Part shown: in pieces, positions 1-8,220 of the stretch | Numbering within the stretch: the stretch's first letter is position 1 | How the letters are laid out: every line of letters begins with the position of its first letter | The notes under the pieces: model-generated | Databases searched by the model: none | What the model was told of the DNA's origin: nothing | What the model saw: the letters and a program-made list of their open reading frames with translations, nothing else | Source of the DNA: a virus | Taxonomy: Duplodnaviria; Heunggongvirae; Uroviricota; Caudoviricetes | Virus record (IMG/VR): IMGVR_UViG_2778261515_000002 | Span: 1 to 8,220 of that record | DNA: 8,220 bases | Reading direction: 5' to 3' (one strand) | Program-made: the position numbers and the translations under genes

Positions 1-1
1 A

Positions 2-484
2 TCAGTCTCTCGCTTTTAAAAGCTCCGCCAGCGGATCAACATCATCCGGTCCGGCGGTATTTACTTTCGCCCGGCTTGCCGGTGACATACCAAATTCTGC
101 AAGCATCGCCCGGATCCGCTTCCAGGCATCCGCTTTCATCGCAGCAGCCGGGTGTGCCTTAATCAGCACATCACCGTTCTGCGTTTCCGTGCGGTAGGTA
201 TACCCCTCAACATCGAGTGTTTCGCAGTGATGCCGGTATTCGGTGTAGGCTTCCACCAGTAACTCGAGTGCACGCGCATCAAGCTGAGAAATGATCCCTT
301 CCGCATTCAGTTCTTCCGCCATTCGCCTGAACCAGTACTTCCCCTGCGACCCTAAATGTTGCGGAATTTTAGGGAGACATTTTTCATCCTTTTTAGCGGT
401 TTTTTTTGGGTCTTTAACGGGGCGCTTTGAGGGGTTGCCTCGTATCAAATGCAGGCGTGGCGGGGTTTTCAGGGGTCCTGACAT
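2..484 (-). CDS. Phage terminase small subunit (P27/HK97-type TerS)
   Basis: 160-aa ORF with ATG at 484-482 and TGA at 4-2. Basic N-terminus (KRPVKDPKKTAKK) and a KAHPAAAMK motif resemble P27-family small terminases. Sits directly downstream of an HNH endonuclease gene, as in HK97-like packaging modules. Family assigned from motifs and context, not from a search. Confidence 0.75.
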   Translation of the reverse strand: MSGPLKTPPRLHLIRGNPSKRPVKDPKKTAKKDEKCLPKIPQHLGSQGKYWFRRMAEELNAEGIISQLDARALELLVEAYTEYRHHCETLDVEGYTYRTETQNGDVLIKAHPAAAMKADAWKRIRAMLAEFGMSPASRAKVNTAGPDDVDPLAELLKARD

Positions 485-631
485 AATCGGTTTTACCTAT
501 CAATCATTTAATCACATTCCAAAAAAAAGTTTTCGAACCTGCGGCGATGCGAGGAAAGGTCAGGCGGCGGTACTGAGCAGCCTGGGTTGCAGAAATTTGA
601 CCCGCCCCTCCCCTGCAGGTGAGAACAATTA

Positions 632-982
632 TCAGTTGATACGTTCGCGCGCAGTTTTTGCTTTATGGCAGGGCCAGCACAGACTCTGCAGGTTACTGTC
701 TGCATTCGTGCCACCATGAGCTTTCGGAATGATGTGGTCCACAGTTCTGGCTTCAACGGCTCTCCCATCGCGCAGGCAGTTCTGACACAGATGATTATCA
801 CGCTTCAGTATGCGCGCACGTATGGCATCCCATTTCGAGCCATAGCCACGCTGGTGGCGGCTCAGTCCGCGTTGGTGCTGCACCCAGCCTTCACCCCGAT
901 GTTTATCGCAGTAGCCAGAGCTGTCTGTTGTTGTGCCTGCGCAGCCTCGCTTACGACATGCGCGGGGGATTTGTGGTGGCAT
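632..982 (-). CDS. HNH endonuclease (packaging-associated)
   Basis: 116 aa from ATG at 982-980, with AGGAG about 9 nt upstream (the track ORF starts at an upstream GTG at 1018). Contains CxxC pairs and the HNH core DHIIPKAHGG...N...CWPCHKAK. Stop TGA at 634-632. Confidence 0.8.
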   Translation of the reverse strand: MPPQIPRACRKRGCAGTTTDSSGYCDKHRGEGWVQHQRGLSRHQRGYGSKWDAIRARILKRDNHLCQNCLRDGRAVEARTVDHIIPKAHGGTNADSNLQSLCWPCHKAKTARERIN

Positions 983-1024
983 AGAATTTCGCTCCTCTAA
1001 AAAATATTCTGCTCTCACCGTCGG

Positions 1025-1207
1025 TCAGTTCTGCATACACTGTCGGACACTATCAACAATTTCGCAGACCTGAGAAGCTGTATCGAAAAGCTGGCGCGCC
1101 TTATCCAGGCTGACGCATCCCACCAATAAAAAAGGCACCAGTATCGCTACCAGTGCCCATTTCGCCGCCGTTCGCGGCATTCTATGTGTCCAGTGTTTTC
1201 TGCTCAT
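1025..1207 (-). CDS. Small lipoprotein, possible o-spanin-like lysis accessory protein
   Basis: 60 aa from ATG at 1207-1205 (AGGTG upstream; alternative ATG at 1180). N-terminal signal peptide with lipobox LLVG-C; short Cys-containing mature part. Lies immediately after the endolysin, where Rz1-type lipoproteins sit. No i-spanin partner seen. Confidence 0.45.
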   Translation of the reverse strand: MSRKHWTHRMPRTAAKWALVAILVPFLLVGCVSLDKARQLFDTASQVCEIVDSVRQCMQN

Positions 1208-1221
1208 AACACACCTGGTTA

Positions 1222-1602
1222 TCAGCGTTTCAACTGAAAGTGAGGCCCGTCTTTCAGTGTTTTCCAGTCCCCGCCCCATTCGATGGCAGTTCCCAGCTCT
1301 GCGGCAGCCTGCTTAAATGCCTGTGCGATTTTCTCGTACAGAGGCCAGTCCCATGACACCTGGCTGCCAACATAAGCCACAACATCCACCGCATCACCTG
1401 TAAGGTGGCGGCTGTTCATGGTCTGGCTTTTCCCTGCCGCTACCAGCTGTTTCTGGCGATACTTACTGCGCAGACCTTCCGTGATACCAAAATCAACCTC
1501 CGTCAGCTCCAGCGCACGGCGAACGACAGCAACCAGCTGTGGTTTGACGCCCTCCAGATTTTTTTCACTGCGACGGCTGAATCTGAATTTACCCGGCATC
1601 AT
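1222..1602 (-). CDS. Endolysin, peptidase M15 family (L-alanyl-D-glutamate peptidase type)
   Basis: Track ORF starts at GTG 1608; in-frame ATGs at 1602 and 1599 follow AGGTGA, and 1599 has the better spacing. Zn-peptidase motifs SRHLTGDAVD and DGPHFQ are typical of M15 endolysins. Stop TGA at 1224-1222. Confidence 0.8.
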   Translation of the reverse strand: MMPGKFRFSRRSEKNLEGVKPQLVAVVRRALELTEVDFGITEGLRSKYRQKQLVAAGKSQTMNSRHLTGDAVDVVAYVGSQVSWDWPLYEKIAQAFKQAAAELGTAIEWGGDWKTLKDGPHFQLKR

Positions 1603-1604
1603 AT

Positions 1605-1880
1605 TCACCTCAACAATGGAAAGATTTTTGTGACGTTCCCGCGTGCGCGTATCACCAGCACGCAGAACAGCAGGTTAAAAAACACTTCCAGCCAGCCCGT
1701 TGCTAACGGGCGACCACACAGATAGCTGAGGGGGGCAAAGGCATAAAGCAGCATCAGCAGCCAGGCCAGCCATGACATCAGCGGTTTGTGTCTGGAGTCA
1801 CGACGACGATAAAAAAAGAGCGTCAGCACGATAACCGTGCATAACGCCACATTCAGCAATCCGGGAAGGTTACTTAACAT
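1605..1880 (-). CDS. Small membrane protein (2-3 TMDs), holin-like or antiholin/lysis-timing candidate
   Basis: 91 aa from ATG at 1880-1878 with a strong GGAGGAGG SD 5 nt upstream. Hydrophobic segments LLNVALCTVIVLTLFFY, LMSWLAWLLMLLYAFAPLSYL and WLEVFFNLLFCVLVI, with a basic C-terminus. Its stop (1607-1605) abuts the endolysin start. Overlaps the upstream holin by 11 nt. Confidence 0.5.
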   Translation of the reverse strand: MLSNLPGLLNVALCTVIVLTLFFYRRRDSRHKPLMSWLAWLLMLLYAFAPLSYLCGRPLATGWLEVFFNLLFCVLVIRARGNVTKIFPLLR

Positions 1881-2262
1881 TGCCGCCTCCTCCACCCCGC
1901 AGGCGGGAGAACACACCGGACACCAGTGATGCAATATCCTGCTGGTGGATGAACGACAGAATCTTCACCGACACCACCGATACCAGCACCGCACACAGCG
2001 CATCTGCCGATGTACCGTCATACCCTGTTTTTGATGCAATCCAGGCTGACAGCACGCGCGCCCCCAGCACGCCGATAATGAACGACACAAGAAAATGCGC
2101 CACCACACGCCAGGCTGAAAGCGCCTGCGGCATCGTTGCCACAAATAACGCCCCGGCGAACGCACCAAACACAATCCCGAAATCCGTTCCGGTAAACAGC
2201 CCGAATACCGTCGCCCCGCCGAGCGCCGCAGCCGTGCCGGAACCGGACAAGGGTTCAGACAT
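1870..2262 (-). CDS. Phage holin, class I-like (three predicted TMDs)
   Basis: 130 aa from ATG at 2262-2260 with AGGAG about 9 nt upstream (track ORF extends to an upstream alternative start). Three hydrophobic helices and a charged C-terminal tail (SRLRGGGGGNVK). First gene of the lysis cassette. Confidence 0.55.
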   Translation of the reverse strand: MSEPLSGSGTAAALGGATVFGLFTGTDFGIVFGAFAGALFVATMPQALSAWRVVAHFLVSFIIGVLGARVLSAWIASKTGYDGTSADALCAVLVSVVSVKILSFIHQQDIASLVSGVFSRLRGGGGGNVK

Positions 2263-2276
2263 ACTTTTTTCTCCTG

Positions 2277-2303
2277 TAAATAAAAAAGGGCCACCAGCGG
2301 CCC
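2277..2303 (-). terminator. Intrinsic terminator immediately upstream of the holin gene
   Basis: On the minus strand the hairpin GGGCC-GCTGGT-GGCCC (2288-2303) is followed by TTTTTTATTT, ending about 15 nt before the holin SD. Confidence 0.5.
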
Positions 2304-2430
2304 GTAAAAAAACACCCGTCAAAGGCACCCGCAGATGCCTTTTGTGTGGCGTTACCTGATGTGATGTGCGCTGGAGGTAGCGCGGAGAAAATGAAATAAG
2401 ACTTACCGGAAATTAAGGTCAATCTGAGGA

Positions 2431-2459
2431 TTTAAACCATTTTTAAAGCTTAGTAATAT
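2431..2459 (+). promoter_or_regulatory. Candidate sigma70 promoter for a plus-strand small transcript
   Basis: TTTAAA (2431-2436), 17-nt spacer, TAATAT (2454-2459). Consensus match judged by eye only. Confidence 0.3.
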
Positions 2460-2465
2460 CAACTC

Positions 2466-2614
2466 GTCTCCGGAAGGAGACCGATACTTATTCTTCTTCA
2501 CGGACTTTGTCCCGCGGCGTTAATCCGACAGCCGCGCTTTTTTTGCGCCATATTCATCGCTGACTTACATGGCATTGCCACACGGACATTATCAGTGTCC
2601 GTGTTTTCTTTTTT
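2466..2614 (+). ncRNA. Candidate small RNA, about 150 nt
   Basis: Bounded by the candidate promoter and a strong plus-strand terminator. Begins with a GGAA tetraloop hairpin GTCTCC-GGAA-GGAGAC (2466-2481). No plus-strand ORF with an SD in between; the interval holds an internal hairpin plus T7 (about 2509-2543). Confidence 0.3.
2581..2614 (+). terminator. Intrinsic terminator (plus strand)
   Basis: Perfect 8-bp stem CACGGACA / TGTCCGTG with 7-nt loop (2581-2603), followed by TTTTCTTTTTT (2604-2614). Confidence 0.6.
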
Positions 2615-2626
2615 CGAATTAAGAAT

Positions 2627-2651
2627 AAAAAAAACCGCCAGATACGGCGGT
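2627..2651 (-). terminator. Intrinsic terminator (minus strand), convergent with the plus-strand terminator
   Basis: On the minus strand the hairpin ACCGCC-GTATCT-GGCGGT (2634-2651) is followed by eight U (plus-strand A-run 2627-2634). Likely ends the tRNA/methylase transcript. Confidence 0.6.
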
Positions 2652-3013
2652 TGGTCAATGCAAGGAATGAATTTTTTAATTGTAATAAAATCGAGGCGTC
2701 GGGTGCCTCCCGAAGTATTCCGTCCTGTATGAATACTGTGGTTTCCCGCTAAACCGACTCTTTTAACCACCCTCGCCCTGAGGAGCGCCCCGATAGTGTT
2801 ATTTACAACACCAGAATGATGCATCACCGACCCTGCCAGGAAATACAAAATCTCCACCAGCAATGCACCATTCTGCTGCCGTAAAAAAATCAGCACTGAG
2901 GCTAACCTGGCCTCAAATCATAGCCAGAGAACAGAATGCTTTTTCAAAACAACCTGCTCCCACGTAATAAAAATACGCCAGTGCTGCAATACAATAAGGC
3001 TTATTTCAAATGC

Positions 3014-3088
<75 letters not shown>

Positions 3089-3094
3089 ATATAG

Positions 3095-3167
3095 TGCCGA
3101 TTACCGGAATCGAACTGGCGACCCGGTGATTACAAGTCAGTTGCTTTGTCTGCTAAGTTAAATCGGC
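3095..3167 (-). tRNA. tRNA-like gene, tRNA-Thr(UGU)-like, non-canonical (possible pseudogene)
   Basis: Reverse complement is GCCGATTTAACTTAGCAGACAAAGCAACTGACTTGTAATCACCGGGTCGCCAGTTCGATTCCGGTAATCGGCA. Perfect 7-bp acceptor stem (GCCGATT/AATCGGC), T-loop TTCGATT, and anticodon loop CTTGTAA (anticodon TGT). But the D and anticodon stems have mismatches, there is an A-C mismatch in the T stem, and the 3' tail is CTA rather than CCA. Lies 6 nt from the tRNA-Gly. Confidence 0.4.
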
Positions 3168-3348
3168 AACGGTTCCTCGGAAAAAATAAAACGACCGATA
3201 TATGCATTATTTCCCTGTCATCTCCTCGGAACCGACTATCGATATTAATGAGGGCAAACACTATTTCAATAAACATAGTGTCAATATTAGTAAATATATG
3301 TATAAATTTCTATCACTCGTGATTGATTACAAATAATCACACACATAT

Positions 3349-4395
3349 TTAACTATTTTCTTTTATTTCGCTTACAGTCTGGTTAAATCTCTCTTCTTCC
3401 AGCTCCACACCTATTGCATGCCGTCCCAGCGATAATGCTGCTTTTATTGTTGATCTCGACCCCATAAAAAAATCAGCAACCAAATCTCCCGGATGGCTGC
3501 TGGCGGTAATTATCTGACGCAACATATCCGCCGGTTTCTCACAGGGATGTTTGCCGGGGTAATACTGCACAGGCTTGTGCGTCCAGACATCCGTATACGG
3601 AACGGCAGCCGATACGGAAAAATAACGCCGCAGAGATTTGTACTCATCCAGCAGGCTGGCATATTGCCGGTTCAGTTCACTGTATGTGCTGACCAGCTGG
3701 TGGTGTGGCTTTTCCAGTTCACCGCGCTGATGTTTTTCTGCTGCAACACGCGCAAACAACGCCTGTAATTTCAGATAATCGCCTTCGTTCGGCAACTGCC
3801 ACTGACTGGTACCAAACCAGTGCGAAGCCATGTTTTTCTTTCCGGTGGCTTCCGCTATCTGTTTTGCCGTTATCCCCAGTGATTCACGCGCATCACGAAA
3901 GTAAGAAATCAGCGGGGCCATGACGTGCTGTTTTAGTTCACGCCCCTTTGCCGCATAGCCGTCATTTTTGGGCAGGTATGGCCCCTGATAATGTTCTGCA
4001 AACAGAATGCGTTCTGTTGCCGGGAAATACGCCCGCAGGCTTTCCTTGTTGCATCCGTTCCAGCGCCCGGACGGCTTCGCCCAGATAATGTGGTTCAGCA
4101 CATTAAAGCGTTCACGCATCATGATTTCGATATCAGATGCCAGGCGATGACCACAGAACAGGTAGAGACTTCCGGCAGGCTTCAGTACCCGCCAGAACTG
4201 CGCCAGACATCGGTCCAGCCATTTCAGGTAATCATCGTCGCCCTTCCACTGGTTATCCCAGCCCTCGGGCTTCACTTTAAAGTATGGCGGGTCTGTGACT
4301 ATCAGATCGACAGAATTTTCCGGTAAGGTCTGGATAAATTCCAGGCAATCAGCGTTGATTAACTCACAACTGGATATTTTTACAGTATTAGTCAT
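3349..4395 (-). CDS. DNA methyltransferase, beta-class (N6-adenine/N4-cytosine family, DPPY motif), no restriction partner in window
   Basis: 348 aa from ATG at 4395-4393. Motif IV (LIVTDPPYF) lies near the N-terminus and the SAM-binding motif I-like segment (DFFMGSRSTIKAA) near the C-terminus; this circular permutation defines beta-class amino-methyltransferases. DPPY rather than SPPY favours N6-adenine. No restriction endonuclease gene is adjacent. Confidence 0.85.
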   Translation of the reverse strand: MTNTVKISSCELINADCLEFIQTLPENSVDLIVTDPPYFKVKPEGWDNQWKGDDDYLKWLDRCLAQFWRVLKPAGSLYLFCGHRLASDIEIMMRERFNVLNHIIWAKPSGRWNGCNKESLRAYFPATERILFAEHYQGPYLPKNDGYAAKGRELKQHVMAPLISYFRDARESLGITAKQIAEATGKKNMASHWFGTSQWQLPNEGDYLKLQALFARVAAEKHQRGELEKPHHQLVSTYSELNRQYASLLDEYKSLRRYFSVSAAVPYTDVWTHKPVQYYPGKHPCEKPADMLRQIITASSHPGDLVADFFMGSRSTIKAALSLGRHAIGVELEEERFNQTVSEIKENS

Positions 4396-4535
4396 AGATC
4401 AATAAGCACTTCTCTGATAGGCTCATACCGCTTTTGCGCAAAGCAGATGGGCCTGAGGTTTGCTTGTGACCCCAACGCATGAGCAGATGGCTGGCAGGTG
4501 CCGCTAACACCCACCAGCCGCCCATTACCACAAAT

Positions 4536-4559
4536 TAAAAAGCCTTCACTGCGGAAGGC
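4536..4559 (-). terminator. Intrinsic terminator after the small HTH gene
   Basis: On the minus strand the hairpin GCCTTC-CGCAGT-GAAGGC (4542-4559) overlaps the stop codon and is followed by TTTTTAATTT. Confidence 0.5.
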
Positions 4560-4743
4560 GTCTGTAACAACCGAACTGATAATCAGCCAGACCTGCCATA
4601 ACAAGCTGGGTCAGTATTAACTGGCAACGTTCGCGTGAAAGGTACGTATTCTGCGCAATTTCCCCGACGGTCGCCGGCTCGGTGACGCTTAATTCATTAA
4701 ACACCACTCTGGCGGTTTCGGTCATATCCTGCTGTTTTAGCAT
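4546..4743 (-). CDS. Small winged-helix DNA-binding protein, FaeA/PapI-like (putative regulator)
   Basis: 65 aa from ATG at 4743-4741 with AAGGGA 7 nt upstream (track ORF starts at an upstream TTG). The segment PATVGEIAQNTYLSRERCQLILTQLVMAGL has the helix-turn-helix pattern of FaeA/PapI-type regulators. Has its own terminator. Family assignment is by pattern recall only. Confidence 0.45.
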   Translation of the reverse strand: MLKQQDMTETARVVFNELSVTEPATVGEIAQNTYLSRERCQLILTQLVMAGLADYQFGCYRRLPQ

Positions 4744-5191
4744 GTCTTTTTCCCTTATTCCGGTTAACGTGACATACCAATAACTCTTGTCGAAAAAGCC
4801 AGCAAGCTGAAAGACCGGTATTCGCAACCACCAGCGCGTTTAACGTACTGCGCCGCTTTTCGGGCATAAAAAACCCCGTTTGGCGGCTGGTTTAAGCTGT
4901 GTGGCAAAGTGACCACTCTTAACATCATATTTAAATTTTTACGTACGTAAACCAGCACGAATTTACATTATAAAATACAAAAACAATAACTTTTCATTAC
5001 ATTTCAGAAGCGCATCTCTCATTACAAAAACATCGTCAATAATTACCAGTACGCATAAACGAGATCTTGATCACACTTTGAACCATTAAATAAACTCCAT
5101 ATCTTGAAATAGCCATACCGATTAGATGTATATTTAGGCCGCAGTGACAATATTTTTTAATAATAGTTCCGAAAAGGACTAAGGATTCACG

Positions 5192-6289
5192 ATGAAAAAA
5201 TTAACAGTGGCAATCTCTGCTGTAGCTGCGTCAGTATTAATGGCGATGTCTGCTCAAGCAGCAGAGATTTATAACAAAGACAGCAACAAACTGGATCTGT
5301 ACGGAAAAGTTAATGCCAAGCACTACTTCTCCTCTAACGATAAACACGATGGTGACAAAACTTATGCTCGTCTGGGCTTCAAAGGCGAAACCCAAATCAA
5401 TGATCAACTGACTGGTTTCGGTCAGTGGGAATATGAATTCAAAGGCAACCGTGCTGAATCTCAAGGTTCTTCCGGGGATAAAACTCGCCTTGCATTCGCT
5501 GGCCTGAAATTCGGTGACTACGGCTCCATCGATTATGGCCGTAACTACGGTGTAGCATACGACATCGGTGCGTGGACTGACGTTTTGCCAGAATTCGGTG
5601 GTGATACCTGGACTCAAACCGACGTATTCATGACTCAGCGTGCAACTGGTGTTGCAACTTACCGTAATAACGACTTCTTCGGTCTGGTTGATGGTCTGAA
5701 CTTTGCTGCTCAGTACCAAGGCAAAAACGATCGTAGCAAGCTCGATAACTATACCGAAGGTAACGGTGATGGCTTCGGTTTCTCTGCTACCTATGAATAC
5801 GAAGGATTCGGTATTGGTGCAACTTATGCGAAATCTGACCGTACCGACACTCAAGTTAATCTAGGGAAAGTTCTTCCTGGAGTATTTGCTTCCGGTAAAA
5901 ATGCAGAAGTTTGGGCCGCTGGTCTGAAATATGACGCTAACAACATTTACTTGGCCACTACCTATTCTGAAACCCAGAATATGACGGTATTTGCTGATCG
6001 CTTCGTCGCTAATAAAGCTCAGAACGTTGAGGCTGTTGCACAATATCAGTTCGATTTTGGGCTGCGTCCGTCCGTGGCTTACCTGCAATCTAAAGGTAAA
6101 GATCTCGGAGTATGGGGCGATCAAGACTTAGTTAAATATGTTGATGTAGGCGCAACCTATTACTTCAACAAAAATATGTCTACTTTCGTTGATTACAAAA
6201 TCAACCTGCTTGACAAAAATGATTTCACCAGAGGTCTTGGTATAAACACCGACGATATTGTTGCTGTCGGTATGGTTTACCAGTTCTAA
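5192..6289 (+). CDS. nmpC: Outer-membrane porin, OmpC/OmpF/PhoE family (prophage NmpC/Lc type)
   Basis: 365 aa from ATG 5192 with AAGGA SD 7 nt upstream; TAA at 6287-6289. Signal peptide [23 protein letters not shown] followed by [16 protein letters not shown], and a C-terminal ...VAVGMVYQF beta-barrel signature. Opposite strand to all phage genes, immediately downstream of Q as in DLP12 and PA-2. Codon usage looks host-optimised. Confidence 0.9.
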
Positions 6290-6310
6290 ATCTTTTTATT
6301 AAAAAAGATA

Positions 6311-6340
6311 TGTTGTGGGAGATATTTATCTCCCACAACA
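6311..6340 (-). terminator. 30-bp perfect palindrome, candidate tR'-type terminator downstream of Q
   Basis: TGTTGTGGGAGATA-TT-TATCTCCCACAACA is a perfect inverted repeat. On the minus strand it is followed by TATCTTTTTTAAT; on the plus strand it is not followed by a U-tract. Lies about 140 nt downstream of the Q stop codon. Confidence 0.45.
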
Positions 6341-6427
6341 TGTGGGTGACGCCCTCACGTCACTGCATTAAGAAAGACATTTTGTCTTTTCTTTTTAACC
6401 TTCTGTTATTTATTACTCTAAACTCTT

Positions 6428-6456
6428 GGGGGCGTTTTTGCGTCCCCTTTTTTATT
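6428..6456 (+). terminator. Intrinsic terminator of the porin gene (plus strand)
   Basis: Stem GGGGGCG / CGTCCCC with loop TTTTTG, followed by TTTTTTATT. Confidence 0.55.
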
Positions 6457-6478
6457 CAATTTTACCAGCAAACGTTAA

Positions 6479-6862
6479 TCAATAACATCTAACAACTTCA
6501 AGATCCATCTCGAGACGAACATCCAGTGCCATCAACATTCCGTCGACTATTCCTTCAGCCTTCTGAAGTTTTTTTCCTATATATCCATCAGAACAATGAT
6601 GCTTACGGGCCAGTGCCATAAACGTCATACCAGCCACATAATAATCTACCAGCAAATCATGCAAATCACTGTTGTTCTTTTTCAAACGAGCCATACACCC
6701 ACAAATAACCATTGCGTCATCATCACTACATTGCGGTCGCGATTTAACCTTTGAAGGAATAAGTCCCTTGAATCCGGCTGCAATCGATGACCAGGTGACA
6801 TCCTCATGATTATTTGCCACCCATGCCCCCCAACGCTCAAGAACCATCTGAATATCACGCAT
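6479..6862 (-). CDS. Late-gene antiterminator Q (small Q family, quuD/phage-82-like)
   Basis: 127 aa from ATG at 6862-6860 with AGGAGGTG SD upstream. Begins [14 protein letters not shown] and contains the Cys-rich segment [18 protein letters not shown]. Located before the porin as in DLP12 (quuD-nmpC). Confidence 0.8.
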
Positions 6863-7119
6863 CAGCGCAGCACCTCCTGCACCAGTTTTTCAAACTTTCC
6901 AACTCTGGTTTCCAGCTCTGCCACACAATCCACCAGCTCATCCACCGCTTTTTGTGCGCGGTGTTTCGCCTGCATCAGTTCCCTGAGCGCTGGCACCATA
7001 TCCCGACGAATGGCATCTTTTGTTACACCTGTTTTTTCCAGTTGTTCCGCCTGTCGCAACATTTCCTGTGCCTGTTTACGTAATTGTTCAGGGGTAAAAG
7101 GTGTTGTCTGGTTGTTCAA
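6862..7119 (-). CDS. Hypothetical small coiled-coil protein
   Basis: 85-aa ORF whose first codon is TTG (7119-7117), overlapping the helicase stop (TTGA); its stop overlaps the Q start (TGATG). The first in-frame ATG is at 7062 (66-aa alternative). Strongly helical, charged sequence; no recognised family. Confidence 0.4.
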
Positions 7120-8220
7120 AAGAAACGCTCCATCTTACTGCTGTCAGTTCGTTTGTTGCTGTATCTGCGCGGCTGGGGCTGCTGCATTGGGGTAGAAAGA
7201 ATCTGTGCGCTTTCCTGATCCACAGGCAGAAAATGTCCGTTATAAAAACGCCGGTAAATCGTTCCCAGAGAACCGTTACGTTGTTTCGTGATATTGATTT
7301 CTGCGATGCCCCTGGCCTGCGTATCCGGGTTGTACACTTCATCCCTGTAAAGCATCAGAATGATGTCTGCATCCGCCTCTATTTCTCCGGAATTTTTCAG
7401 GTCTGAGTTCATGGGGCGTTTATTGGGCCTGGACTCCACACCGCGGGAGAGCTGACTCAACGCAACCACCGGTAATCCGCCGGATTTTGCCAGGCCTTTA
7501 AGCCCCTTTGAGATTTCACCCACGGCAAGGTCATGACGCCCCGTGCTCCGGGTTTTTATCAGCCCGAGATAATCAACCACCACCAGCGCCGTTTCCGGAT
7601 GTTTAATCAGGTGGTGTTTCGTTGTTGCGTATATCTCGTCAATGGTCAGGTTCGCCTGGTCCACCATCCAGATATTGCGCCCGGTCATCCGCCCCACTCC
7701 TTGTGAGAAACGTGCCCAGTCTTCGTCTTCAAAGTGAGTGACAGATTTCAGGCGTGATACCGGCATTCCTCCAGCCGCAGATACCATGCGCTCACCAATC
7801 TGGATGTTCGCCATTTCCATTGTGAACAGAAGAACACCATGCCCCTGCTCAGTCACCTTGTCGATGATATCCAGCGCCAGTTCGGTTTTACCCATCGAAG
7901 GACGAGCCGCAATAAATACCAGGTCGCCGGGTTCCATACCGCCTGTTTTTGCGTCCAGTTCATCAATACCGGTCATCAGCGTCCTGGATTTCTCCAGCCC
8001 CTGATTCCGGCATTCAACACGTTCAACCACTTCCGGAAGCACATCATCAATATGTACCGGCTGAATAATACCCTTCCCCGTCGACAATGAGGCCATCATG
8101 TTCTGCGCATCCTTCAGAGCATCTTCAGCTGCTTCACAGGTATGCGCATCACGTAATTTCTGTAATGAACCGCCCCGGAAATCCTGGAGACTAAACTCCC
8201 TGAGAAAGAGGTAAACAGGA
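7116..8220 (-). CDS. DnaB-family replicative DNA helicase, 5'-partial (N-terminus beyond window end)
   Basis: The frame is open from the window edge (8219) to TGA at 7118-7116, about 367 codons in the window. DnaB C-terminal RecA-like domain with Walker A (IAARPSMGKTELA), the ...LMTGIDELDAKTGG... linker and ...ADADIILMLYRDEVY... The track ORF begins at an internal Met (8099). Confidence 0.85.
   Translation of the reverse strand, partial: PVYLFLREFSLQDFRGGSLQKLRDAHTCEAAEDALKDAQNMMASLSTGKGIIQPVHIDDVLPEVVERVECRNQGLEKSRTLMTGIDELDAKTGGMEPGDLVFIAARPSMGKTELALDIIDKVTEQGHGVLLFTMEMANIQIGERMVSAAGGMPVSRLKSVTHFEDEDWARFSQGVGRMTGRNIWMVDQANLTIDEIYATTKHHLIKHPETALVVVDYLGLIKTRSTGRHDLAVGEISKGLKGLAKSGGLPVVALSQLSRGVESRPNKRPMNSDLKNSGEIEADADIILMLYRDEVYNPDTQARGIAEINITKQRNGSLGTIYRRFYNGHFLPVDQESAQILSTPMQQPQPRRYSNKRTDSSKMERFF

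Follow-up and report, generated by a model that had tools for sequence, protein, structure and literature searches.

Which function is served by a cluster of transcription terminators in an apparently empty part of a prophage genome? The question arises for a gap of about 750 nt (positions 2264-3013) between the tRNA genes and the holin gene of the virus record IMGVR_UViG_2778261515_000002, of which positions 1 to 8,220 (8,220 nt; hereafter the window) were analysed. According to its annotated neighbourhood and Pfam matches, the window is a P27-like lambdoid prophage with its late genes on the minus strand, and it is 100% identical to a prophage of porcine enterotoxigenic Escherichia coli (ETEC) strains (e.g., NZ_CP122823). 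An earlier note, made from the sequence of the window, had read the terminators within the gap as an insulator between stacked, independently transcribed modules. Comparison with relatives points to a different main role: the facing terminators are probably the 3' ends of two convergent small RNA (sRNA) genes, located in a moron-insertion zone between tRNA cargo and holin. Two predicted non-coding units with facing 3' ends on opposite strands were found.

Relatives of the region were gathered in two ways, via the holin protein and via a 14-mer taken from within it; when viral contigs were scanned with the latter, many unrelated chance matches appeared beside the true relatives. Six terminator-like sites were counted within 2264-3013 versus 0.9±1.1 in shuffled sequences, an enrichment that bears out the density of terminators noticed earlier in this non-coding stretch. 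Two of them, detected by scan and folding, are strong. The plus-strand terminator (T2), previously placed at 2581-2614, has an 11-bp stem with five G-C pairs (2580-2604) followed by a T tract at 2605-2614 (tail TTTCTTTTTT, also written UUUCUUUUUU); it folds with -15.1 kcal/mol (z -5.7), which was equalled by none of 200 shuffles. The minus-strand terminator, previously placed at 2627-2651, has an 8-bp stem (AACCGCCG/UGGCGGUU, 2652-2633; -11.7 kcal/mol, z -4.1) and a U8 tract at 2632-2623. Both are among the best of the window in the consensus scan. Being near-palindromic, their hairpins fold on the two strands with equal ease, yet each is followed by a U tract in only one orientation; the two are thus predicted to act as unidirectional terminators that face each other, their U tracts being 8 nt apart.

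Conservation agrees with this assignment. The hairpin of T2 is common to nine close variants, and the commonest alternative variant carries a hairpin of unrelated sequence (CACGAGUAUUCCUGGAUGCUCGUG, CACGAG..CUCGUG) plus UCUUUUUUU (U7) in the same position and orientation; in the relative L078, the equivalent hairpin contains a G.U pair workable on the plus strand only. Retention of structure and position while the sequence has been replaced argues for function. At the minus-strand site, 30 of the 32 distinct homologues retain a stem that abuts the U run, with differing loops, and the two exceptions harbour a new cassette with its own terminator just downstream. On such comparative grounds, both predicted terminators are confirmed as real, unidirectional and conserved. 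A minus-strand promoter-like match at 2617-2588 falls into the loop of T2, is not conserved in the alternative variant and is probably due to chance. Terminator prediction on both strands (consensus scan and shuffles) thus supported the two strong candidates of the earlier note, but two further hairpins that it had listed, at 2709-2693 and 2916-2896, fold no better than shuffles.

The sequence upstream of the minus-strand terminator is itself structured. Its core (2689-2816, minus strand) is supported by a match to the Rfam family STnc100 and by covariation in an alignment (A1) of the window copy and 31 distinct variants with 68-98% identity (32 sequences). The STnc100 model (RF02076) matches 2819..2623 over its full length with 22.6 bits and shares the motif CGGGAGGCACCCG. 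RNAalifold, run independently on A1, yielded a multi-branched fold in which a closing stem (GGGGCG, 2791-2786, with CGCCUC, 2698-2693) surrounds four hairpins, CGGG-AGGCA-CCCG being one of them. Paired cells amount to 98.1%, and 41 cells show double changes compared to 16±4 in shuffles (reached in 0 of 500), with slid controls far below. In the closing stem, C-G (18 sequences) alternates with U-A (13) at one pair, G-C (28) alternates with A-U (3) at another, and many pairs switch from G.U to G-C or A-U, which is workable on the minus strand only. This fold also accounts for what had been taken as a third terminator at 2693-2713. The respective hairpin (GAGGC/GCCUC, 2709-2693, minus strand) can form, with 5 bp and -8.3 kcal/mol, but its z of -1.2 was matched by 23 of 200 shuffles, its covariation is no greater than in shuffles and a C-G pair is broken in 12 of the 32 homologues. 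Its 3' arm covaries instead with the distal 2791-2786; the site therefore represents the 3' half of the closing stem and not a terminator.

Between core and terminator, an A/U-rich stretch (GAUUUUAUUACAAUUAAAAAAUUCAUUCCUUGCAUUGACC, 2653-2692, minus strand) remains unpaired in the consensus fold and is likely, by analogy, to comprise the Hfq-binding and seed region; by eye, it resembles the pre-terminator stretch UCAUUUUCCUUGUGAG of the sRNA PasD. Sequence comparison identifies the terminator at 2652-2623 as the end of the RNA. Its 5' end would lie near 2793 if it behaves like PasD2, whose mapped fragments start about 30 nt inside the Rfam match, and the minus strand would accordingly encode a structured RNA of about 171 nt (about 170-200 nt) distantly related to STnc100. 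A covariance model of the core (R1) scored 45-53 bits with intermediates (L091, L105, L144, L177 and L155). Against STnc100 of prophage Sp5 of E. coli O157 Sakai, it aligned at full length with a low score of 19.6 bits and a rough E-value of 5e-5 in 1 kb, or 0.004 in 85 kb. In L155 (10958-11203), another prophage contig, a match to DicF (55.5 bits) directly abuts a match to STnc100 (38.2 bits) on the same strand. Among 5,426 complete E. coli genomes, 219 have a megablast match to the minus-strand RNA, avian pathogenic E. coli (APEC) O1 and E. coli W being two of them.

The plus-strand unit belongs to a segment (2362-2552) that forms a module of its own in 30 additional distinct variants and was studied in alignments A2/A5 (31 sequences, 22 distinct). 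Its putative promoter (2431-2459, plus strand) is composed of a -35 element TTTAAA (2431-2436), a 17-nt spacer and a -10 element TAATAT (2454-2459); positions -12T, -11A, -8A and -7T are invariant across the 31 sequences with 69-95% identity, including a distant group with TAAAAT. This promoter would drive an sRNA candidate of ~79 nt (2466-2544, plus strand), or of ~149 nt if transcription ended at 2614. The predicted RNA starts with a hairpin (2466-2481) displaying C-G to U-A covariation, continues with a strongly conserved unpaired stretch (CUUAUUCUUCUUCAYGGACUUUGUCC; CU-rich single strand CUUAUUCUUCUUCA) and would end at a terminator absent from the earlier note (T1; plus strand, stem 2513-2536, T7 in the DNA and U7 in the RNA at 2538-2544), in which two pairs covary. 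Overall, 95.4% of the cells are paired and 23 carry double changes versus 10.4 in shuffles (reached in 0 of 500). The transcript lacks an AUG, and its U tract is found on the plus strand only. T2 follows 36 nt beyond T1 and would thus serve as a second, tandem (backup) terminator of the plus-strand unit. In the commonest alternative variant, T1 has a poor U tract (CUACUUUUC).

For the plus-strand RNA, no Rfam family matched at E<=10 within 2250-3020, and its covariance model (R2) gave nothing significant at the loci of PasA, PasC, AsxR and Esr41-like RNAs, the best score being 13.8 bits at an Esr41-like locus. Megablast located it in at least 112 of the 5,426 complete E. coli genomes, including APEC O1. 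Features annotated beneath the genome matches of both RNAs read "none" or "hypothetical protein", the pair was present in only two phage records, and a full-text literature search with the core sequences of both RNAs returned no paper. The plus-strand RNA therefore appears undescribed, having neither an Rfam family nor a literature match. RNAduplex predicted no more complementarity between the two convergent RNAs than between shuffles.

Convergent pairs of Hfq-bound sRNAs have been reported for lambdoid prophages of O157 Sakai, where they reside at the moron insertion site 3' of PR' (Tree et al. 2014, PMC4104026). The pair of the window occupies the same place on the map, 3' of Q/PR' and 5' of the lysis genes, and likewise consists of small genes on opposite strands with facing terminators and an STnc100-like partner on the late strand. 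Rfam models place tRNAs, stx2AB and STnc100 (207.7 bits) on the late strand of Sp5, with AsxR (88.1 bits) converging and the ends of both sRNAs separated by 2 nt, compared to 8 nt between the U tracts here. Differences from Sp5 concern the absence of any coding moron, toxin gene or other, between tRNAs and sRNA pair, an antisense partner that is not AsxR/AgvB (no Rfam or R2 match) and has two tandem terminators, and the host phage, which is P27-like with a holin of the Phage_holin_8 family.

STnc100 is encoded 75 nt downstream of stx2 in Stx2 phages (PMC12370729) and is also present in Salmonella prophages. With it, the minus-strand RNA appears to have in common a closing stem around several hairpins, a subsequent A/U-rich tail plus terminator, and the above-mentioned motif. 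The closing stems differ in a compensatory manner (AUGGUG/CACCAU in STnc100, GGGGCG/CGCCUC in the window). Synteny is shared as well: both are located on the late strand of lambdoid phages, after tRNAs or a moron, and converge with an antisense sRNA. The putative seed regions differ. The minus-strand RNA is called STnc100-like and regarded as a distant relative rather than as a member of the family.

Further counterparts are the Pas sRNAs of enteropathogenic E. coli (EPEC) E2348/69, encoded between Q and holin (Pearl Mizrahi 2021, PMC8550237; bioRxiv 10.64898/2026.05.13.724894), among which PasD has been related to STnc100 (Zhu, Shabalina and Storz preprint, bioRxiv 10.64898/2026.05.13.724894). 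PasD1 and PasD2 are Hfq-bound, ~170 nt long and reach sub-threshold scores of 37.7 and 41.4 bits with the Rfam STnc100 model. They are preceded by a DUF3927 gene, in contrast to the tRNAs of the window; the PasD seed UGUGAG is absent from 2692-2653, and a blastn comparison of the 750-nt gap with the E2348/69 Pas loci (PasD relatives L003-L005) retrieved nothing. Prophage PP4 of E2348/69 encodes PasD1 and then a convergent antisense Esr41-like gene before the holin, and PasA and PasC likewise read antisense to the late genes. PasB lies in the tail-gene region and was disregarded as irrelevant. The plus-strand sRNA candidate shares slot and orientation with PasA/PasC, Esr41 and AsxR/AgvB, as well as the general build of own promoter, short body and an intrinsic terminator directed towards the late-strand sRNA. 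It showed no detectable resemblance to these RNAs in sequence or structure, and its CU-rich single strand is distinct. The Rfam models for AsxR/AgvB and Esr41 (RF02703, RF02702 and RF02676) had no match at E<=10 in 2250-3020; the same scans recovered AsxR (88.1 bits) and Esr41-like loci (28-32 bits) at control loci. As a tentative proposal, which we hold to be possible but somewhat doubtful, the plus-strand RNA could represent a new prophage sRNA family in the slot of anti-sRNAs, acting in trans on host RNAs (as sponge or Shine-Dalgarno-targeting repressor), and the window a new allele of the convergent cassette with a divergent STnc100-type partner.

Several observations weigh against the interpretation as two sRNA genes. 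The RF02076 score of 22.6 bits remains below the gathering score of 47 and corresponds to an E-value of 0.12 for the whole window and 0.011 for 771 nt, and R1 did not detect PasD1 and PasD2 (~5 bits, E ~2). Covariation in A1 derives from related sequences and few independent events; eight pairs are changed on both sides, a number reached by 4 of 500 shuffles (mean 4.7). The promoter of the plus-strand unit agrees with the consensus at 8 of 12 positions, which is below the scan threshold, and RNAduplex found no complementarity above shuffles between the seed of the plus-strand RNA and the start regions of holin, methylase, Q and ompC. For the minus-strand RNA, the interval from the tRNAs to the core yielded no convincing sigma-70 promoter; this RNA could be processed from a transcript of the tRNA operon or from the late transcript.

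The latter point leads to the alternative that survives best, even if we regard it as unlikely, i.e., that the minus-strand structure belongs to a longer transcript, the tRNA-operon 3' trailer or a Q-dependent late mRNA leader, as a cis-acting or processed element, for example a platform for RNase III/E that yields a 3'-derived RNA or tunes holin expression. Next to the missing promoter, it is favoured by a long imperfect hairpin of ~28 bp with many G.U pairs (2800-2887, minus strand), which is situated between the U7 tract of the tRNA trailer and the sRNA core, resembles a typical RNase III substrate and may be an RNase III processing site. This hairpin, exposed by chance-level matches to microRNA precursors in Rfam, is very conserved; RNAalifold pairs columns 145-228 of alignment A4, where changes affect one side only, from G.U to A-U. 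It is specific to the minus strand due to its richness in G.U pairs and ends at a recombination breakpoint. The microRNA, mmgR, STnc240 and other sub-threshold Rfam matches reflect only generic hairpins or terminators. Moreover, the weak U7 site upstream may let transcripts of the tRNA operon read on, and PasA is reportedly cut from a longer transcript. On the other hand, the strong conserved U8 terminator at 2623 would set a discrete 3' end as in PasD and STnc100, PasD has a mapped 5' end, and a breakpoint at ~2800 separates the core from the tRNA module, the core being swapped as a cassette on its own. Processing would in any case alter how the RNA is made rather than what the terminator is.

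Modularity of the region is evident from the positions at which homology to relatives breaks (~2803/2796, 2693, 2627-2616, 2550/2544, 2362 and 2354), i.e., at or beside terminators and at the edges of the two units. A cassette of ~330 nt is inserted exactly between the convergent terminators in L053 (1000-1540) and at the same place in L073, L095, L110, L122, L159 and L176; it contains two further terminators in late direction and a piece resembling the 3' half of a tRNA (GGGGTTCGAGTCCCC...). In L053 and L073, the stem of the original sRNA terminator has degenerated. Some relatives carry a TerB/DUF3927 moron after the sRNA terminator. In L009 (2235-2375; also L006 and L008), a short body of ~100 nt replaces the branched STnc100-like core, while the upstream long hairpin and an AACCGCC...GGCGGTT-U8 terminator are retained and followed by a second late-direction terminator (GGCTCGCTACGGCGGGCC-U5). 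The LT-IIb toxin phage SerU-LTIIb of Escherichia (L002, KU052038) harbours the block of tRNA, STnc100-like sRNA and holin twice in tandem (2270-4950), one copy having a truncated holin2. The insertion of cassettes or of the TerB/DUF3927 moron at terminators in relatives bears out the stacking of morons postulated in the earlier note. Its concept of independent modules holds insofar as the units are exchangeable, bounded by terminators and positioned between tRNA/methylase cargo and lysis genes, but not with respect to the terminators as free-standing insulators, since they are predicted sRNA 3' ends.

That the hairpins only wall off the neighbouring units (tRNA/methylase and lysis genes), and that the RNAs ending there are functionless, is accordingly judged very unlikely. 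Dense terminators at module borders, foreign cassettes between the terminators of relatives and a conserved terminator pair directly before the holin would be expected of such a pure insulator. This pair is formed by a hairpin at 2342-2321 with U7 at 2312-2306 (2342-2306, minus strand) and a minus-strand terminator (GGGCCGCUGGUGGCCC, 2303-2288, U6 at 2287-2282) just upstream of the ribosome-binding site of the holin gene; neither was listed in the earlier note. It is kept in nearly all loci of the holin family, whatever lies upstream, and is likely the last barrier before the holin ATG at 2262. A mere wall, by contrast, would need neither a conserved upstream body of 130-170 nt nor the own conserved promoter of the plus-strand unit, yet the upstream sequences are conserved as structured RNAs with covariation, and Hfq-bound sRNAs have been detected experimentally from the homologous position of Sakai and E2348/69.

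The weakest alternative, a 132-amino-acid protein with the hairpins incidental within its coding sequence, rests on an uninterrupted, annotated open reading frame (WP_064226585.1 in RefSeq; GTG start, 2896..2498, minus strand) spanning the region, and on a 132-amino-acid frame annotated also at the PasD1 locus of E2348/69 in opposite orientation relative to the late genes, and can practically be dismissed, as all 24 distinct homologues spanning the frame have indels of 1-2 nt and 2-7 in-frame stops, the frame has no Pfam match and includes a strong U8 terminator, and substitutions track RNA pairing rather than codons. By this sequence comparison, WP_064226585.1 is almost certainly a spurious call, and the non-coding character ascribed to the region in the earlier note withstands the RefSeq annotation.

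Taking the facing terminators as the 3' ends of two convergent sRNA genes, hairpin and U tail would set the 3' end of each RNA and, by analogy with PasD, AsxR and other Hfq-dependent sRNAs, provide its Hfq-binding site. With both predicted terminators unidirectional and 8 nt apart, neither transcript would run antisense into the gene of its partner. Along the late strand, polymerases moving from the tRNAs to the holin would encounter up to four stop signals (2889-2883, 2652-2623, 2342-2306 and 2303-2282). Polymerase modified by Q of phage lambda at PR' reads through such terminators. During lysogeny, the minus-strand terminators together with the pair at 2342-2282 would halt constitutive transcripts of tRNAs and sRNA before the lysis genes; upon induction, Q-modified RNA polymerase would read through all minus-strand terminators, and expression of the lysis genes would accordingly be confined to the induced state. 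A Q-overridden insulation of these genes during lysogeny is plausible, and the idea of the earlier note was reasonable in this regard. It would more plausibly be the task of the dedicated pair at 2342-2282 than of the facing terminators, for which it may be a secondary role.

A comparable situation is known from lambda tR' and StxS (Sy et al. 2020, PMC7547250), where intrinsic terminators in the Q-dependent late path give rise to short RNAs as by-products or products. A tR'-like role here would mean that read-through is blocked in lysogens and that the terminators are ignored after induction. Unlike tR', the terminators of the window are located far downstream of Q and would each belong to a small gene of their own; a perfect 14-bp palindromic hairpin downstream of Q (6341-6310) is the more likely PR'-proximal terminator here. 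Its U tract is on the minus strand, and it is a candidate for tR'. A plus-strand terminator was also noticed at 6428-6447.

Closer to the tRNAs, the weaker terminator suspected near 2898-2914 was retained in part. The local hairpin (2916-2896, minus strand) is at shuffle level (z -1.4), with a U7 tract (2889-2883) 6 nt away. RNAalifold on 25 homologues predicted a conserved long-range stem of 8 bp (CAGCACUG, 2982-2975, with CAGUGCUG, 2897-2890), followed by an A and the U7 tract, which is kept as U6-U8 in all rows of the alignment. This stem closes a branched, structured 3' trailer of the tRNAs (2883-2984, minus strand) that includes the weak hairpin, and modelling suggests that stem and U7 at 2883 may possibly terminate the tRNA operon. 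A -10-like TATGAT (2922-2917; TATAAT in L173 and L012) is located inside the trailer. Transcripts starting from it would lack the 5' arm and, speculatively, might not terminate.

The gene order around the region is as follows. Q antiterminator (PF06530, 181.5 bits) is encoded at 6862-6479 on the minus strand. Between it and a DNA methyltransferase gene (4395-3349, minus strand), an ompC-like porin moron (5192-6289, plus strand) is oriented opposite to the late strand, comparable to the porin genes nmpC of K-12 prophage DLP12 and lc of phage PA-2. Directly upstream of the sRNA pair in late direction, the tRNA cargo (3014-3167) comprises a gene for tRNA-Gly(UCC) (3088-3014, minus strand; called by ARAGORN, Rfam tRNA 65.6 bits) and a degenerate tRNA-like gene (3167-3095, minus strand; Rfam tRNA 45.9 bits). 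The latter, which was neither called by ARAGORN nor annotated by RefSeq, has mismatches in the anticodon stem and the T stem; relatives are annotated to have an intact tRNA-Thr/Arg plus tRNA-Gly at the same place. The gap is followed on the minus strand by the holin gene (Phage_holin_8, 2262-1870, ATG at 2262) and subsequently by genes for a second holin, endolysin, HNH and terminase.

An apparently bare terminator cluster in seemingly empty prophage DNA thus probably represents a pair of sRNA genes. The layout was already known and no new mechanism is revealed. The practical yield consists of a flagged spurious RefSeq protein as well as two covariance models and exact coordinates for unannotated sRNAs. 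Divergent and in part undescribed versions of the convergent-pair cassette known from enterohaemorrhagic E. coli (EHEC) Shiga-toxin phages and EPEC prophages would accordingly reside also in P27-like prophages of porcine ETEC (as in the window), APEC O1 and E. coli W. For the phage, the terminator pair before the holin is a likely safeguard against leaky lysis.

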